Shown here: piece by piece, positions 229 through 8,318 of the stretch
How positions within the stretch are numbered: the stretch's first letter is position 1
Layout: every line of letters begins with the position of its first letter
IMG/VR virus record: IMGVR_UViG_2541047850_000015
Direction: 5' to 3' (one strand)
Origin: a virus
Taxonomy: Duplodnaviria > Heunggongvirae > Uroviricota > Caudoviricetes
DNA: 40,635 nt
Program-made: the position numbers and the translations under genes
The notes under the pieces: generated by a model
What the model saw: the letters and a program-made list of their open reading frames with translations, nothing else
Told to the model about the DNA's origin: nothing
The model's database searches: none

Positions 229-3174
229 TTAGTGCTTCCCTTCTATTAAGTCTAACCTAGCTTTTATTCTTTCTATTTCTCTGCGCTGCCATGCCGCCTC
301 GATATAGAATAAGAGATCAGGTCTGACCCCCCATCTAGATCCTGCTGGCGTTATTTCAACGCGCTCAATGATGTCTTCTATTACCATCACTGGATTATCA
401 TCCTCATCAACAATGATGCTCCCGTCATTATCAGTCAGCGGCATTTCCCTTTGGCCAGTAATGACGTCATCATATACTGCGGGATAATCGTCATAGCAAA
501 GAAAGGCATAGCGGCATGTTGTGCTTTCTTCTTCCATGAGTCCGTGAGAAATAAGAACATCACGAAGTTGCTGCGCGATTACACCATGATGTATCCTCGC
601 CCCTTCTTCCCCCTTTATAGCGACAGCGTTCAGCCATTTATAAGCGATATACCTGACGTCACCCCAGGCATCCAGCAATGCTTCGTCAGGAGAGACCGGC
701 TCTGTCTTTAATGTTCCGTCACTGGTAACCACAGGATTGGAGCCAAGATAAACTGTCGAGAACCTGTTTCCCGGACCACCAAGAGCATTTACATTATCAA
801 GATAAGGTTTAACATCTCCGTTCTCAAAAAGATGTTCGAGTGCGTTATATACCGCGCGACGTGGAGTACTGCTTCCGGAACCATGCAACGTTATCATTGC
901 ACCATCTGCTGAAGACGTTGTTTCACCGCCGCTAACGATTAATCTCTGAGCGGTAACATCATCAGACGGTACTTTCTTCGCAATAATGGCGTAATTACCC
1001 TCAAGTTTGACTTCCGCGCGAACTTGTCCTGATGTACCTGCATGGACAGTCAGTGACTGGACGGCAACATCATCTGTGAAATCAACGGGTACAGGAACCG
1101 TCCTCACGCCTGACGTCGACATAAAAGTAGGAAGCGTTCTGTTAGGAGTGGCTCCGTAGACAAAATCCCTTGAAACAAATTCTTCCTGTTTAATTTTCAC
1201 CCTGAAACAATACAAATCAGCCGGGTGACCATCGTGAACATAAGGATATTTTCTGTTGTTATCCCCTATGCTCCATGGGTTTAGAAAATCTTCCCCACCG
1301 AAAATGTAGTACAGCCAGTTGTCTTTGATACAAACTGAACCAACACCAACCGCAGAGTTAACTATTCCGCCCTGATAAATCTGATCAGTAACATTAACCC
1401 ACTCTACATTATCCAGACTCCACTCATTGACGTTAACTCTGGTCATAAATGTTCTTGGATAATTTCCTGCATAACGGTTATCAGGTTCTCCTCCTTCCCA
1501 CTCACCAAATGCGCGCTCACTGCCAAAAATAACCAGCTCATCGCCAACTTTGGCAAAAGGAAGGTTTGAGTGATGAACATTATTTGGGAAGCGAAGAGAA
1601 TTCCATGATGTACCTAAATCAGAGCTTCTGTGCAATGAACTACCGGGTTGAGTACTTAATGTCCCCCTGGTCGTCAGATACAGAATGCCATCATAATATT
1701 TTACACATGGCTCAGATGCATTCGCCTCATATTCTGCAGGTATGCGTCTGCGAACAAAGCTACCAGGAGAACCGAAAGCATCAGAGAAATAGAGTATCCC
1801 AAGCTCGCGTGGACCAATATCACCATTATGGTAGCCAACAGCAAAACTGTTATCGCTAATCGTCGCAAAACTGTGAATCTCAGTAACAGGAGTGCTTCCG
1901 TCAACAAAAGAAGGAATAGTTCCAAGACTGGTTTTTCTCCATGGTGACGAGTGAAATGATGTGCCAAAACTCCAGTATCTACCCTCGTTATTCTGATCCA
2001 CATCCTGGGTATTTTGCGTCGTAACTGTAAAGGTATTTTTATCAATAACAGTAGTCACCGTCATATTCCCGGTAACATCTGTAACACCAGAGTTTGAGAA
2101 GTTGACAAAATCACCAGCAAATAATCCGTGATCAGTAATGCGAATATAAGCGACTTGCTGATTTGCTGCTTTCGTTATACCACCATAAACGCGAAGGCTG
2201 CGACTCATTGGGCGATCCCACAACTCTGCAACCTGCAGTTTATTTCCTCTCACGGTCCGCGTCTCAATTACAGCAAAAAGGCGATTTCTGACAACCCCCA
2301 TACTCATGCAGTGATAGTTAACTGTGGGATAGTTTTCATGTAAATCTGTAAGCCATTCCGGCGTTGTCCAGGTCTTCCCGTCATCTCCTGAGCGAACCCA
2401 TGCAACATGGAGGTTATTTACACCATGGCGGTCTCCAGCCATAAAAGGCGCATAGATGACATTGTCATATACAAACGTTTTATCCTGCGTCCAGGCGTTG
2501 TACCACGGTGTATCTGTAATTTTAAATAACTCTCCCTGGATAAAATCTTCAGAAGCATAAAAAAGAGGCTGACCCGGTATTCTCTCAAATAAAAAACGAG
2601 CATTTTTAAATCGACTGACATCTGGAAGAGTTGATACTTTAAAAGTAAGCCCTCGCCCATCTATCTTTTCACCACCTGTTGCAACAGAAAGTAATTCTGA
2701 TAGAGCTGATGTATCATCATGAACACCATCACCAATAGCCCCCCAACCTCTTACATCATAACTGTCTCTCCATCTTGCTATCTGAAGTTTTGGGTATTTA
2801 TTCGCTCCATCTGGGTCTTCTAATTGCTGCCGTAGTTGATCTGGGTCATACTTCAGCACATTAGGAAAATAGAACTGCTGCGCACCATACGCATCATAAA
2901 CAGCCATAGAATGGCCTTGCACGGTAACGAATTTGGCAATCTGTCCGTTATATACAGGATATCCAGCAGCGTTAATGATGATTGGTTGAGAAACAGGAAC
3001 GTGAGAACCGTCTTCGTTCTCCACATAAGCCTGAATCTGGTTTTCAGGATTTACAGGGTCAGTATCAATTTTACCGATATAAATTTTGCCATTAGCTACG
3101 GCTTTAAAAGAACGCGCCATAGTGAAGAGTTGCGAAGGCATCGATACAATCACATTGGCTGTAATGTCTGTCAT
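229..3174 (-). CDS. Tailspike: P22 gp9-type N-terminal head-binding domain fused to an endo-N-acetylneuraminidase (endosialidase) domain with C-terminal intramolecular chaperone domain
   Basis: N-terminus [10 protein letters not shown]...[11 protein letters not shown]...VLKYDPDQ closely resembles P22 gp9 N-terminus; two Asp-box motifs ([16 protein letters not shown]) typical of sialidase beta-propellers; C-terminal about 150 aa resembles the self-cleaving chaperone domain of K1F/K5 tailspikes. Confidence 0.85.
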
Positions 3175-3232: not shown

Positions 3233-3258
3233 AAAAAAACCCAGCCGAAGCTGGGTCG
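3233..3258 (-). terminator. Rho-independent terminator downstream of ant (CCCAGC-TTCG-GCTGGG followed by T-run on minus strand)
   Basis: GC hairpin plus run of 7 T on the minus strand between ant stop and tailspike start. Confidence 0.6.
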
Positions 3259-3296: not shown

Positions 3297-4220
3297 TTAA
3301 AGTTTTATTGAGTGGCACGCTCTATCACGTATCGCTGCGAATGAAGCTATCTCTTTAAGTGCCCAGCTTTGCTCAGCCATTAAATGGCGAAGTGCTTTTA
3401 GTTCAGCTCTTACTGCTGAAACGTCATACCCCGCTTTTGTCAGAATATTGATTAGTTTATACGCCGGACTGCATTCAACGAGTGCGCTGCGGTCAAGAGC
3501 AACAGTATCACCGCATTGCTGCCTGATAATGGCGTAAGGTGCATTTTCAGCAAACCATGAAATCGGGAAGTTAATATCCAGTTTTGGCGCTGGTAACTCT
3601 TCTTGTTTGCCAATGAACTCACCTTCAAGTGGAACTCGAGCTGCAAGTGACAGTGCTTCGGTGAACTGCTCCTCACTGATTTCTTTGTACGAACATCCAA
3701 AATGGGATTTCAGTGAGGACCACATGGTGATCATCGCCTTAGCCTGTTTTTCTTTTGGCAGAGACTGACCGCGACTCATGACGAGTTGTTTAATGGCTTC
3801 CTGCTGTTCAGTGGTGATTTTACCCGGCAACGCCTTTTTAGCTTTGCGTGGGTTAACTACATGACCTTTAGTCCAGTACTCGTATAGCACATCGTCACAC
3901 TCTTCCTGATACTGGATTACCTTGTCGCGGATTTCAGGACGGACTTTGTTTGGCTGAATGCTTGAAAGCCAAGCCGCAAACTTACGAAAGGCAAGGCATA
4001 TCATTAACTGTTTACCGCCAGCAGAAGGTATTTCGATTTCCGAAATACCTTTGACAAATCTCTGTTTTAATTTAACAAATTGAGCAGCCCAAACCATACC
4101 CATGCCTTCTACAACGGGTTTCATAGGAACGTAAGGTTCATTGTTAATGCTGACCAAAAAGAGATTTGTTCCGTGGAATGGAACGTTGATTGTATGTTCT
4201 GCAATTGCTACACTCGTCAT
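3297..4220 (-). CDS. ant: Antirepressor Ant (P22 Ant-like, AntA N-terminal domain plus KilAC-like C-terminal region)
   Basis: 307 aa, position downstream of arc in immI, size and organisation like P22 Ant (300 aa). Confidence 0.8.
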   Translation of the reverse strand: MTSVAIAEHTINVPFHGTNLFLVSINNEPYVPMKPVVEGMGMVWAAQFVKLKQRFVKGISEIEIPSAGGKQLMICLAFRKFAAWLSSIQPNKVRPEIRDKVIQYQEECDDVLYEYWTKGHVVNPRKAKKALPGKITTEQQEAIKQLVMSRGQSLPKEKQAKAMITMWSSLKSHFGCSYKEISEEQFTEALSLAARVPLEGEFIGKQEELPAPKLDINFPISWFAENAPYAIIRQQCGDTVALDRSALVECSPAYKLINILTKAGYDVSAVRAELKALRHLMAEQSWALKEIASFAAIRDRACHSIKL

Positions 4221-4283
4221 GTCGTTAATTCCTATGCGTGGTTTTACGATACCGAAGCCCTGACTGTTACCGCAGTTGGGGCT

Positions 4284-4505
4284 TCACTGTTTTTGTAAGT
4301 CACTGTAGCTATAAAGCCACTGACCACTCATTTTTGATTTGATTGACTCTACTGAATCACGGCAAGGAATGATTCCGCCTGACATCATTCTGATCTCCGT
4401 AAATTCACCACTCCTTATCGATTCAATGCCATCAATGTTAACTAAAGATTTACCTCTACCAAGTGCATTCTCATAGCCAATCTCATCAACCTCAATAAAC
4501 CTCAT
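4284..4505 (-). CDS. Hypothetical 73-aa protein inserted between arc and ant, start overlaps arc stop (ATGA)
   Basis: ORF in track; GAGGGG upstream; translational coupling to arc. No recognisable family. Confidence 0.45.
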   Translation of the reverse strand: MRFIEVDEIGYENALGRGKSLVNIDGIESIRSGEFTEIRMMSGGIIPCRDSVESIKSKMSGQWLYSYSDLQKQ

Positions 4506-4660
4506 ACCGTTATCCCCTCTCTCTTCAGGCTGTCCAACACTCGCTTGTAAATCTCAGAGTTAACAGATCGCCCGTTCTCTTCCGCCACCTTACGCACCAA
4601 ATCCAATACTTCTTTAGGCCACCGCAAATTGAACTGCGGCATTTTGCTCATTCCTTTCAT
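4502..4660 (-). CDS. arc: Arc repressor (ribbon-helix-helix)
   Basis: MKGMSKMPQFNLRWPKEVLDLVRKVAEENGRSVNSEIY... is near-identical to P22 Arc; start moved to internal ATG (about 4660) because upstream ORF-track extension would cover the operators. Confidence 0.92.
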   Translation of the reverse strand: MKGMSKMPQFNLRWPKEVLDLVRKVAEENGRSVNSEIYKRVLDSLKREGITV

Positions 4661-4674
4661 ATTTACCTCACAAT

Positions 4675-4723
4675 ATAGGTCCACCGTGGACCTATTGAGA
4701 ATATAGTAGAGTGCTTCTATCAT
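4675..4723. promoter_or_regulatory. immI control region: Mnt operator palindrome (about 4675-4695, TAGGTCCACCGTGGACCTA) and Arc operator (about 4703-4723, ATAGTAGAGTGCTTCTATCAT) with divergent Pant/Pmnt promoters
   Basis: Perfect 19-bp palindrome seen in sequence; second site matches the P22 arc operator as I remember it; located between divergent arc and mnt starts. Confidence 0.8.
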
Positions 4724-4750
4724 GTCAATACACTAACTTGGGGTGATGGC

Positions 4751-5005
4751 ATGGCTAGAAACGATCCGCACTTTAACTTCCGTATGCCTTTGGAAGTAAG
4801 AGAAAAATTGAAATTAAGAGCAGAGGCTAACGGAAGGTCAATGAACTCTGAGTTATTACAAATCGTTCAGGATGCTCTCTCAAAGCCATCACCGATTGCA
4901 GGCTATCGAGACGAAGCTGAACGCTTGGCTGATCAGCAAGCAGAGCAGTTCAAGGCCGTTGTGTTTGAGACACTTAAAAAGATTTATGGCAAGGATGATA
5001 AATAA
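4751..5005 (+). CDS. mnt: Mnt repressor
   Basis: MARNDPHFNFRMPLEVREKLKLRAEANGRSMNSELLQIVQDALSKPSP... is near-identical to P22 Mnt. Confidence 0.92.
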   Translation: MARNDPHFNFRMPLEVREKLKLRAEANGRSMNSELLQIVQDALSKPSPIAGYRDEAERLADQQAEQFKAVVFETLKKIYGKDDK

Positions 5006-5541
5006 TGCTGCACACAATTCATTTCTTATGCCCCGTTAACACTGCCACTGTTGGGCAACTTCAGAACCACTGTCTCACCGCATTATCTCAAGGCGCAACT
5101 GAATTAAATATCCATATATCAAGTCAGGGAGGGGAAACTGCCGCTGGCTTTACTGCGTATAACTTTCTTAAGTCACTCCCTGTTACCGTTAGAACTCACA
5201 ACATAAGCAATGTTGAATCCATAGCTAATATCGTTTTCCTGGCTGGCTCAGAACGTTTCGCAAACCCATTATCAAGATTCCTGTTACATCCTCTATTATG
5301 GTGCTTTGCCTCCCCAGCCGCCGACCATGCCAGATTGAGAGAGTACGGGAAATGCCTCGATAACGATCTTGATCGCTTCGTTGAGACGTTCAATATCGAC
5401 ATCGGAACCCATATTAGGTGGGCATCCCTGATAGCAGACTCGACCATTTTGGATGCTAACAAGGCTCTTGAGCATGGCATAATTAATTCCATAAAAACCG
5501 CAAGGCTGGCATCCAATCAGGCAAACTGGTGGGTTGTTTGA
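5005..5541 (+). CDS. ClpP-like serine protease-domain protein (178 aa), translationally coupled to mnt (TAATG overlap)
   Basis: Alignable by eye with ClpP: ISSQGGETAAGFTAY / VSTIC..S..A / RF..P.SR...H; candidate Ser-His-Asp triad positions retained (ESIAN, LLHPL, ADSTILDA). Not in the head module. Confidence 0.55.
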   Translation: MLHTIHFLCPVNTATVGQLQNHCLTALSQGATELNIHISSQGGETAAGFTAYNFLKSLPVTVRTHNISNVESIANIVFLAGSERFANPLSRFLLHPLLWCFASPAADHARLREYGKCLDNDLDRFVETFNIDIGTHIRWASLIADSTILDANKALEHGIINSIKTARLASNQANWWVV

Positions 5542-5616: not shown

Positions 5617-6474
5617 TTAAAAAAGTTTTCGAAGATCTACGCCATACACAGCAAGCCAAGCATCGCGAGGCCATGACTTAACTGAGCCAAAGCGTGGGTC
5701 GTTGACATCATGTGGGGTGACGTCATTCTCCCGGCACCACTTGCGAAGAGGCTGCCATTTGAATTTCTGCCCCAGCTTCTTTTCTACCGGGATAATGGCG
5801 GCGTAGTTCTTTCCTTCCCCTACCCGTTCAGCTAATTTGTTTTTGGCGCGGACGGCTGCTGATGCGGTAGCCATTGCTGTAGCTTCGCGTTTTGCTGCAA
5901 TCCACAACTTTTCTTTTACCGCTCTGTCGCGCTGTTGCTCAAGAAGCCGATTCTCTTTGACCTTTAGAAGTAAATCTTCCAGAGCCTGCTCGTATGTCTG
6001 CGGTAGGATGCTTTTTACCAAGGGACGGAAGTAAGCATTTTCCAACCGTTCGAAGAAAGACCATGCTTCGTCTGTATCGACAATTTTCGACATCCGCGCT
6101 GCGCCCTTCTCCGTCCACAAAACAATTGAACGAGCTTTGTTCGAAATTTGTGCGTGACTATTAGTCACTCGCAAATTCTTCAACTCTTGGCCTTTAATAG
6201 TGAAGATGTGAATTCCTTCAATGAAGCGTCCAGCATTGCGTGACAGGTTTTTCCGAATGTTAGCCTCATCCGTACCATAACCTGAAGCCAGCGTTTCAGT
6301 CGTAACAACACGTAAACCCTCCCATTCAATCACTGGAAGCGGCTGGGGATCGACATTTGGCTCATGAACTGCTAAATTTAATAAAGTCATTGGTTGGACC
6401 CTTATGACAAGTTTCAATGAAAGCCGGTAGCTCGTAACTGTCGGCTTTTCTTTTTGCACCGTCCTGTGCGTCAA
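5617..6474 (-). CDS. Antirepressor-like protein with ORF6N-type N-terminal domain
   Basis: Motif LPVIEWEGLRVVTTETLASGYGTDEANIRKNLSRNAGRFIEGIHIFTIKGQEL typical of ORF6N domain; track start is TTG, an alternative ATG lies about 6390. Confidence 0.6.
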   Translation of the reverse strand: MTHRTVQKEKPTVTSYRLSLKLVIRVQPMTLLNLAVHEPNVDPQPLPVIEWEGLRVVTTETLASGYGTDEANIRKNLSRNAGRFIEGIHIFTIKGQELKNLRVTNSHAQISNKARSIVLWTEKGAARMSKIVDTDEAWSFFERLENAYFRPLVKSILPQTYEQALEDLLLKVKENRLLEQQRDRAVKEKLWIAAKREATAMATASAAVRAKNKLAERVGEGKNYAAIIPVEKKLGQKFKWQPLRKWCRENDVTPHDVNDPRFGSVKSWPRDAWLAVYGVDLRKLF

Positions 6475-7206
6475 TCAGTGAATCCATTCCTCACCGCGAA
6501 GCATTGCCAACATTGGCTGCGCATGCTTCACGACAATATTGCTGTTATCCAGTTCCTGTACTTCACGAAGCAGGATCTTCTTGGTTTCCACAGTCATATA
6601 ACGAATGTCGTGGGCGATGTCGTATAGCATCCCTGCGTATTCTGACTTAGCCTGTTTCATTGCCGGGTAAAGTTGCTGGCTAACCCGCTGGCTCTTTTCC
6701 ATCCAGAGCTGGAGATAGCAAAGGCTGATTAACTCATCATCTGTGAACTGTTTGGCGATCGGTGAATCCGTGGCTTCACGATCCAAAATATCCAGCACCC
6801 AACGGCGGAACTCTTTGGCCTTGGGCGTAGAAGCAAACATCGCCACCAAGTGAGCGCCTCGGAGTGAGTAAACTCTGACCGATTTGTTACGTAAGCTATT
6901 GTTTATCCCGTTGACACTCATATTGAGGGTCAATGACATTGAGTCGGAAAACTCATCAGCATTACGGGCATAAATTTGGCTGATGGCATCAGTTTTTTTA
7001 TAGCCGAGAGCCTTAGCTAGTTCGGTGGAGGTAAACCAGATAGACCCGCCCTCTGTTACTGGGTTAAAGGTGAATCCTTGGAAGTTGTAATCTGATTTTG
7101 CTACAATATTCATATCGATATTTCCGTCGTAGGATTTGTTCGATACCGAAGCCTGACGGTCTAGCCACCGTTGGGCTTCAACGTTTTTAATGGATGATAA
7201 TTTCAC
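6475..7206 (-). CDS. Bro-N domain antirepressor-like protein (probable true start at ATG about 7113)
   Basis: FTSTELAKALGY...VRVYSLRGAHLVAMFASTPKAKEFRRWVLDIL matches Bro-N domain; track start is GTG at 7206 and would overlap the upstream small ORF. Confidence 0.6.
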   Translation of the reverse strand: MKLSSIKNVEAQRWLDRQASVSNKSYDGNIDMNIVAKSDYNFQGFTFNPVTEGGSIWFTSTELAKALGYKKTDAISQIYARNADEFSDSMSLTLNMSVNGINNSLRNKSVRVYSLRGAHLVAMFASTPKAKEFRRWVLDILDREATDSPIAKQFTDDELISLCYLQLWMEKSQRVSQQLYPAMKQAKSEYAGMLYDIAHDIRYMTVETKKILLREVQELDNSNIVVKHAQPMLAMLRGEEWIH

Positions 7207-7457: not shown

Positions 7458-8318
7458 ATGAGTTTTGATGATTCTTTTTCTAAACGAGTTGCCATAGCGC
7501 GCAACTCCATCGGTTTGACTCAATCCGAGCTTGCTAAGAAAGTAGGCGTGGTATCCAGACAGATCGCTGCTTACGAGGGCGGGGAAGCCAAGCCAAGAGA
7601 AAAGGCACTTCAAAACCTTGCGGCTGCATTGGGAACTACCACTGAATGGCTTACGCAAGGGAAAGGAGATGGCCCTGACGTTAGCAGTGTCAAGAGAACT
7701 GTTACTGTGCGCGAGATTCCTGTGCTAACACACGTACAGGCAAGATTTGAATCGCTAGATGATTTACTAAAGACTGCTGCTATAAAGGACTTTATTCCAG
7801 CCCCTCCTGAAGCCAATGAATACTGTTTTGCCGTTGAAATACAAGGAGACTCCATGTCTTCCGGTGATGGGATTAGCTTTCCTCCTGGAACAATCGTAAC
7901 TTTCGATTCATCGCTAGAGGCTGTTTCTGGTGACTTTGTGATGTGTGTGCTGAATGATGATTCTGAGGCTACATTTAAGCAGCTTATACTGGATCAGCGC
8001 CAAATCTACCTTAAGCCACTTAACCCTTTATACCCTATGTTCCAACCTGATTTTATCGAGGTTGTTGGCGTGGCTATTCATTCTCAGTTCCGAATAAAGA
8101 GGGAAAAACTTATCTCTCCAATGCCGCATAGCGAAGTAGAGAAACTGGTTGAAGAAGCACACAAGGTTAGCCAAGATTTTTGGTCAAATGCAAAATTTGA
8201 CAAGAATACACCCTTTGACGAACGTCTTAAGCGACTAGATGAAATTGCTGAGCGCCTTGAGAAATTTGCTAACTACAGCCTTTCACAGGCCCGTTATAAA
8301 CACTCACCAGACAAGTAA
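7458..8318 (+). CDS. cI/LexA-like repressor: N-terminal HTH (XRE) plus S24 peptidase domain with about 75-aa C-terminal helical extension
   Basis: HTH segment GLTQSELAKKVGVVSRQIAAYEGG; S24 motifs GDSM and FKQL...KPLNP; AAGGTG RBS. Confidence 0.7.
   Translation: MSFDDSFSKRVAIARNSIGLTQSELAKKVGVVSRQIAAYEGGEAKPREKALQNLAAALGTTTEWLTQGKGDGPDVSSVKRTVTVREIPVLTHVQARFESLDDLLKTAAIKDFIPAPPEANEYCFAVEIQGDSMSSGDGISFPPGTIVTFDSSLEAVSGDFVMCVLNDDSEATFKQLILDQRQIYLKPLNPLYPMFQPDFIEVVGVAIHSQFRIKREKLISPMPHSEVEKLVEEAHKVSQDFWSNAKFDKNTPFDERLKRLDEIAERLEKFANYSLSQARYKHSPDK

Follow-up and report, generated by a model that had tools for sequence, protein, structure and literature searches.

The immI region of phage P22 is a textbook regulatory circuit made up of Arc, Mnt, the sar antisense RNA and the antirepressor. 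In P22, Mnt represses the Pant promoter in lysogens, Arc shuts Pant off after the burst, the translation of ant is blocked by sar, and transcription of the late operon crosses immI in the sense direction (PMC2629481, PMC11016777, PMC13397905). The so-called "ant moron" region of P22-like phages is highly mosaic, with ten types in sixteen genomes, and the published account describes whole genes (ant, arc, sieA, hkc) as present, absent or replaced (PMC2629481, Villafane et al. 2008). In this regard, we analyzed orf73, a gene of 73 amino acids (aa) that lies at this same genomic position, between arc and ant, in a P22-like prophage of E. coli, the IMG/VR virus record IMGVR_UViG_2541047850_000015. 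The whole stretch of DNA, 40,635 nucleotides (nt) long, is referred to as the window. Our results lean towards orf73 being an exchangeable cargo gene rather than a core regulator of immI.

An extra gene within a P22-type immI operon

The segment from 3297 to 5005 of the window is a P22-type immI, in which arc, orf73 and ant are read in this order on the minus strand. The features that define orf73 itself are the following.

4284 to 4505, minus strand: orf73, an open reading frame (ORF) of 73 aa with an ATG start, which constitutes a 222-nt insert (PHROG 11805; WP_001210981.1).
4502 to 4505, minus strand: ATGA overlap, with the ATG of orf73 (4503-4505) placed on the TGA of arc (4502-4504).
4514 to 4519, minus strand: GAGGGG Shine-Dalgarno-like motif within the final codons of arc, 8-10 nt 5' of the orf73 ATG.

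A preliminary description of this DNA, made from the sequence alone, had reported an extra 73-aa gene in the arc-ant operon that is absent from P22 and coupled to arc. Both points hold: P22 has only a 68-nt spacer between arc and ant, without an extra gene, and the ATGA overlap together with the GAGGGG motif has the geometry of translational coupling. The same description called the ORF unrecognised, which needs correction, as orf73 is already catalogued as a hypothetical protein. The PHROG 11805 profile covers positions 1-73 of its 73 residues (E 2.8e-53), the protein is labelled "orf73" in the GenBank record of Salmonella phage vB_SemP_Emek, and it is annotated as a hypothetical protein in Escherichia phage vB_EcoP-611R6 and by the Prokaryotic Genome Annotation Pipeline. 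The protein is 100% identical in Emek (AFM54340.1) and 96% identical in 611R6 (URC09203.1), and both phages have the arc-orf73-ant order, whereas the arc, ant and tailspike alleles that stand alongside orf73 differ from those of the window.

Around orf73, the components of the P22 circuit are found at these positions.

4502 to 4660, minus strand: arc, encoding a 52-aa ribbon-helix-helix (RHH) repressor (Pfam Arc, E 5.9e-26).
3297 to 4220, minus strand: ant, encoding a 307-aa antirepressor, the final gene of the Pant operon (P22_AR_N, E 6.9e-40; PHROG anti-repressor Ant, E 1e-68).
4751 to 5005, plus strand: mnt, encoding an 84-aa protein (Pfam Arc, E 3.4e-27; Repressor_Mnt, E 3.8e-12).
4700 to 4728, minus strand: Pant promoter, TTGACA, 17-nt spacer, TATATT, matching 11 of 12 consensus positions.
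4695 to 4723, plus strand: Pmnt promoter, TTGAGA, 17-nt spacer, TATCAT, matching 10 of 12 consensus positions, divergent from and overlapping Pant.

Arc and Mnt, whose identities were also confirmed with PHROGs, are accordingly placed on divergent, overlapping promoters with the antirepressor gene 3' of arc, and almost all aligned bases of the promoter/operator DNA match P22. The window also shares with P22 a full-length, two-hairpin sar, an Ant with the P22_AR_N domain, and flanking DNA-transfer genes and tailspike gene. It differs from P22 in the 222-nt gene between arc and sar, in the C-terminus of Arc (...SLKREGITV versus ...SFKKEGRIGA in P22) and in the ant allele, whose product shows only ~40% identity to P22 Ant. 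When the window, P22, Emek and 611R6 were aligned, the extra DNA appeared as a clean block extending from the 3' end of arc to the conserved hairpin GAAGCCCCAACTGCGGTAACAGTCAGGGCTTC. The suggestion that orf73 is a moron was rejected in its strict sense, since orf73 lacks its own promoter (no promoter-like site was found between Pant and the ORF). No sense-strand terminator was found after orf73, and its start overlaps the stop codon of arc.

The arc-sar junction is polymorphic

We searched E. coli genomes with the sar segment as a 67-nt query. The sar-terminator hairpin was matched in 855 E. coli genomes, and at least 80% of the sar segment was covered in 114 of them. At least 177 of the 855 genomes hold one of four unrelated small genes between arc and this hairpin. 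Besides orf73 (51 genomes), the occupants are a 57-aa protein of PHROG 17642 (93 genomes), which is also present in phage phiv205-1, a 74-aa CxxC...CxxC protein (23 genomes), and a 60-aa stand-alone ClpX C4-type zinc finger (PF06689, E 7.6e-11; 10 genomes). The loci with alternative cargo, and the corresponding boundaries in the window, are given below.

Alternative-cargo loci: L022, 2063 to 2245; L023, 1534 to 1707; L026, 1534 to 1758.
Slot boundaries in the window: 4284 to 4296 and 4502 to 4535.

The four cargo genes are bounded in the same way. All of them start by a 4-nt overlap on the arc stop codon, after the same GAGGGG; the overlap reads GTGA instead of ATGA in L023, as it does in L020, the contig with a divergent homologue of orf73. 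At the other end, the sar-terminator hairpin in each case begins with the last two bases of the stop codon, and three of the four genes finish on the identical codons AAA CAG TGA, which form the U-tract of the sar terminator on the opposite strand. The P22 slot is empty: the TAA of arc is followed by 4 nt and then by the hairpin.

At 20 loci we compared the genes that accompany orf73. It is paired there with distinct Arc alleles (recognition strands PQFNLRWP, ILVRMPQ and KTLRMPE) and with at least four ant types, so dependence on a particular Ant or Arc partner was rejected. The arc alleles at these 20 loci have in common their final codons, DSLKREG[IV][TA][VA], and the overlap, and the final ~35 nt of arc form the left boundary of the exchangeable module. 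Since the arc and ant alleles differ but the 3' codons of arc and the overlap are common, the mobile unit comprises the arc 3' end together with orf73 and the sar terminator. Judged by these comparisons, orf73 is one of the alleles that occupy a variable cargo position, whose recombination boundaries are fixed. A slot inside the arc-ant operon with fixed arc 3' and sar-terminator boundaries was not found described in the account of the "ant moron" region (PMC2629481).

The sar antisense RNA is retained downstream of orf73

The preliminary description had placed orf73 in the interval where P22 encodes sar, and had considered that the gene may displace control of the sar type. Neither proposal survived, as sar is intact beside the ORF.

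4222 to 4288, plus strand: sar RNA, Rfam RF00262, covering model positions 1-68 of 68 with 77.7 bits against a gathering score of 43 (E 7.6e-16).
4254 to 4296, plus strand: sar terminator, a 14-bp hairpin (4254-4285) followed by ACTGTTTTTG.
4186 to 4214, plus strand: candidate Psar promoter, TTGATT, 17-nt spacer, TACACT, inside the 5' end of ant, read from the sequence and an alignment.

This full-length match lies directly 3' of the ORF, so displacement of sar was rejected, and the insertion therefore sits between arc and sar. The RNA is complementary to the ribosome-binding region of ant and adjoins the ant ATG (4218-4220), while its 3' end overlaps the stop codon of orf73. Using Rfam, we found sar directly after the ORF in all ten ORF-bearing relatives scanned, and also in P22. 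Comparison of eight sar sequences revealed that the terminator stem is nearly invariant and that compensatory changes occur at four base pairs, in stem 1 and in a predicted inner extension.

The tail of the sar terminator is the reverse complement of the final orf73 codons CAA AAA CAG TGA and marks the right boundary of the module. Where the hairpin is followed by ACTGTTTTTG in the window (4286-4296, plus strand), P22 has AACTTTACGC (L003, about 2036-2046), so the window has the better U-tract. Small-RNA reads from P22 reach 104 nt, past the terminator into arc (PMC13397905); the stronger U-tract of the window may limit antisense read-through into the cargo gene.

As for the promoter of sar, an antisense promoter had been proposed for 4220-4284 and is not there; the position equivalent to P22 Psar falls inside the 5' end of ant, at ~4186-4214. 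The candidate at this position matches 8 of 12 consensus positions, which is below the scan threshold, and it was not called by the promoter scan. Relative to the ant ATG, its -10 hexamer lies where P22 has TATACT.

Predicted fold of the orf73 protein and the question of DNA binding

The protein encoded by orf73 is acidic, with a pI of 5.0 and a net charge of -2.5. From a shallow alignment, AlphaFold2 gave a predicted local distance difference test (pLDDT) score of 85 and a predicted template modeling (pTM) score of 0.73, with three of the five models confident. The predicted structure contains strands at residues 2-8, 19-23, 27-32, 36-40 and 45-48, and helices at 52-60 and 67-72. When Foldseek was run against viral models, the top entries were phage proteins named "flagellar and swarming motility protein" (E 1.7e-3, TM-score 0.6-0.8). 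FlbD (PF06289) was the only Pfam match, both for orf73 (14.6 bits, E 0.025) and, in the same register, for the divergent homologue P0008 (14.0 bits, E 0.038), although neither reaches the FlbD gathering threshold of 24.7 bits. With a hidden Markov model (HMM) built from real FlbD proteins, orf73 scored above all but 7 of 3,000 shuffles (P ~0.002-0.004). The sole match in a profile search of Protein Data Bank (PDB) sequences, to FAIM1 (E 0.15), was dismissed as chance.

According to a 2026 preprint (PMC13232269), the FlbD-family protein SwrD folds like RemA and assembles into hexameric rings, and it lacks the RemA beta3-beta4 insertion that carries the DNA-binding residues Arg51 and Arg53. The orf73 protein resembles SwrD/FlbD (PF06289) and RemA (PDB 7BM2, 7BME) in its similar size and in a five-stranded core followed by a helix, and FlbD proteins are acidic as it is (median pI 5.3). 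It differs from SwrD in two respects: the gene resides in a phage immI operon and not in a flagellar (fla/che) operon, and its C-terminal tail is aromatic and conserved (MSGQWxYSYxDL), whereas that of SwrD is charged. RemA is a basic protein (pI 10.1) with a DNA-binding insertion, and orf73 has neither; the prediction places ~12 residues between the strands, compared with ~28 in RemA. Taken together, these individually weak indications make a SwrD/FlbD/RemA-like fold probable for orf73, and DNA binding is unlikely because the RemA insertion is missing and the pI is acidic.

These same features bear on the proposal that orf73 is a RemA/LytTR-like, DNA-binding co-regulator of immI, whose rings would wrap DNA, with a modulating effect on Pant, on Pmnt or on some other promoter of the phage. 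Apart from the acidic charge and the missing counterpart of the arginine-bearing insertion, BLASTP gave no alignment between orf73 and RemA. Furthermore, orf73 is found with Arc alleles and operators of differing specificity, and its slot may be empty or hold unrelated proteins. We therefore regard a regulator of this kind as unlikely.

Conservation of orf73 and selection on its product

orf73 was present in 51 of 5,426 complete E. coli genomes (~1%), where every copy is full length, single and beside an Arc-family gene, with 95.5-100% identity, and all 16 IMG/VR contigs carry it intact at 73 codons. A scan of species-representative genomes gave no relatives and a plasmid scan gave no match. 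In an exhaustive phmmer/HMMER search of 1.84 billion representative proteins, P0008 (84 aa, 65% identical) was the sole true relative; the search also returned P0007, a deletion variant of the family, and P0009, which was rejected as a spurious repeat protein. P0008 matches PHROG 11805 (E 4.7e-28), and a search seeded with it returned P0008 alone. A word-indexed protein search yielded only clusters of at least 90% identity, except for the internally deleted P0007. The orf73 family is extremely narrow and confined to phages and prophages of the P22-like (Lederbergvirus) kind in E. coli and Salmonella.

The divergent homologue is set in the same arrangement, its contig (L020) carrying mnt, arc, the homologue (whose start forms GTGA with the arc stop), then sar and the beginning of ant. 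Between orf73 and the P0008 gene, the ratio of non-synonymous to synonymous substitution rates (dN/dS) is 0.20 (dS 1.23), the other five frames of the P0008 gene are closed by 3 to 12 stops each, and 41 residues are invariant across the family. Among the seven nucleotide haplotypes of orf73, which are of low divergence, the corresponding polymorphism ratio (pN/pS) is mostly 0.1-0.6. Conservation of the frame among relatives, whose absence together with that of translation evidence would have refuted the preliminary description, was found in the 51 E. coli genomes, the 16 IMG/VR loci, Emek, 611R6 and the 65% identical homologue. By its pattern of substitutions, orf73 is a genuine protein-coding gene with its frame under purifying selection.

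The dN/dS value and the invariant residues also bear on the idea that the act of translation matters more than the product, the peptide being incidental. Under this idea, ribosomes that terminate at the base of the sar-terminator hairpin would adjust the translation of ant, the stability of the mRNA or the pairing of sar. In its favour, each of the four cargo types has a stop codon that shares exactly 2 nt with the hairpin base, and in P22 the arc stop is 4 nt upstream of this hairpin; the arrangement in which a translated ORF finishes at the hairpin is thus conserved. Selection, however, appears to act on the protein sequence, and P22 reaches the same geometry by arc alone, without need of an extra ORF, which makes a purely cis-acting role of translation quite improbable.

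Gene order and the 4-nt overlap also resemble those of operons encoding an RHH antitoxin and a toxin, in which arc-orf73 would be a type II toxin-antitoxin (TA) or abortive-infection-like pair with the RHH protein upstream and a small toxin downstream. We consider this very improbable, as Pfam, NCBIfam and PADLOC gave no match to a toxin, TA or defence family, Arc is a 52-aa P22-type repressor with operators and without a C-terminal toxin-binding extension, and the same Arc tail precedes unrelated cargo proteins. It is hardly credible that orf73 is a remnant in decay or without function, or a spurious call that annotation pipelines make by default: its extremely narrow family (one true relative and a deletion variant among the 1.84 billion proteins), the few disrupted variants and a low GC content (38.7% against 47.2% for the window) would suit it, but the gene is intact in 51 of 51 genomes, synonymous changes exceed non-synonymous ones, frame and coupling are kept at 65% identity with the remaining frames closed, and a good Shine-Dalgarno-like motif and a confident AlphaFold2 fold are present.

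Proposed expression and role of orf73

We are moderately inclined to view orf73 as a genuine gene and exchangeable cargo in an otherwise complete P22-type immI, made together with Arc, escaping sar and forming no part of the switch. With its translational-coupling geometry to arc and its position outside the sar target, orf73 would be made from every transcript that carries arc. The brief Pant burst after infection or after loss of Mnt would thus yield the orf73 protein, and read-through from the late operon would probably do so as well, because orf73 lies in the sense orientation of that operon. Being upstream of the sar target, the ribosome-binding site of ant, orf73 would escape the sar block that silences ant, including on transcripts whose ant is silenced.

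Its product would be an acidic, beta-rich protein with, less certainly, the SwrD/FlbD/RemA-like fold. Proteins of this fold form hexameric or octameric rings, and we would expect orf73 to act as a ring-forming factor that binds not DNA but a protein of the host or of a resident prophage. The gene would be accessory cargo and not a component of the Arc/Mnt/sar switch, because circuits of different specificity carry it and because the slot holds unrelated proteins or none.

Several observations weigh against this reading. Regarding the fold, two of the five AlphaFold2 models of orf73 were poor, and AlphaFold2 gave a pLDDT of 41 for P0008, which did not replicate the fold. The comparison of orf73 with FlbD by hhalign returned a probability of 5% (E 0.0076), and Foldseek against the PDB gave nothing significant, with RemA ranked 39th at a TM-score of 0.50. 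Regarding the gene, rare disrupted variants exist that are frameshifted, truncated or internally deleted (P0002, P0006, P0007); the variant forms comprise a 90-aa version reading through into the sar hairpin, a truncated 48-aa version and a 45-aa version with an in-frame internal deletion on nine contigs. The family is also tiny and nearly invariant, so that the estimates of selection depend for the most part on a single divergent homologue, for which dS is close to saturation. Finally, the escape from sar and the expression by late read-through are drawn from P22 biology, and literature searches on the accessions, the PHROG identifier and phage Emek found no paper on the gene.

A bolder version, which we hold as tentative and rather doubtful, is that small effectors have a dedicated, hot-swappable slot at the arc-sar junction, would be produced alongside Arc during the first minutes after infection and would deliberately escape sar, with orf73 as a new ring-forming effector on a target in the host or a resident prophage. 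If this effector reading is true, possible targets include the flagellar stator, a protease or adaptor, and a defence or immunity protein. Our results point to the slot as an overlooked site where temperate phages park small early proteins under repressor control. If the slot proteins are effectors, their co-expression with the antirepressor gives a defined time and context for testing them; should orf73 be just another hypothetical gene of the mosaic, the practical gain is a corrected annotation, in which sar is kept and the insertion lies upstream of it.

Neighbouring features of the window

The tailspike gene is separated from ant by a strong terminator-like hairpin, which has a U-tract, at 3238-3257 (minus strand). 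An Rfam match of this hairpin to "anti-hemB" (18 bits) was sub-threshold and dismissed as chance, and a match to AaHKsRNA82 near the locus, also sub-threshold and on a terminator-like hairpin, was likewise rejected.

On the other side of immI, a gene at 5005-5541 (plus strand) encodes a 178-aa ClpP-like protease (PF00574, E 2.2e-11), for which every NCBIfam match was below cutoff. Its start sits on the stop codon of mnt (TAATG), and the lysogen probably expresses it along with Mnt. An identical ClpP-like protein, WP_000903306.1, is encoded 3' of mnt in a prophage of E. coli ATCC 11775. The presence of a ClpP-like gene beside mnt is curious, as the arc-sar slot of another prophage holds the ClpX zinc-finger gene.

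Between immI and the DNA-transfer genes lies a second antirepressor-like set (5617-7206, minus strand), with an ORF6N domain and with Bro-N plus P22_AR_C. It is adjoined by a divergent gene at 7458-8318 (plus strand), which encodes a 286-aa protein with helix-turn-helix and Peptidase_S24 domains (LexA/CI-like), and the set may be an additional, SOS-linked antirepressor module.

The tailspike gene (229-3174, minus strand) encodes a 981-aa endosialidase with P22 head-binding, endosialidase beta-propeller and tailspike domains and a Peptidase_S74 chaperone. From this endosialidase tailspike, the prophage is therefore a K1-capsule-specific, CUS-3-like phage of the P22 type. The tailspike region is 100% identical to that of E. 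coli O16:H6 CU37RT-2.
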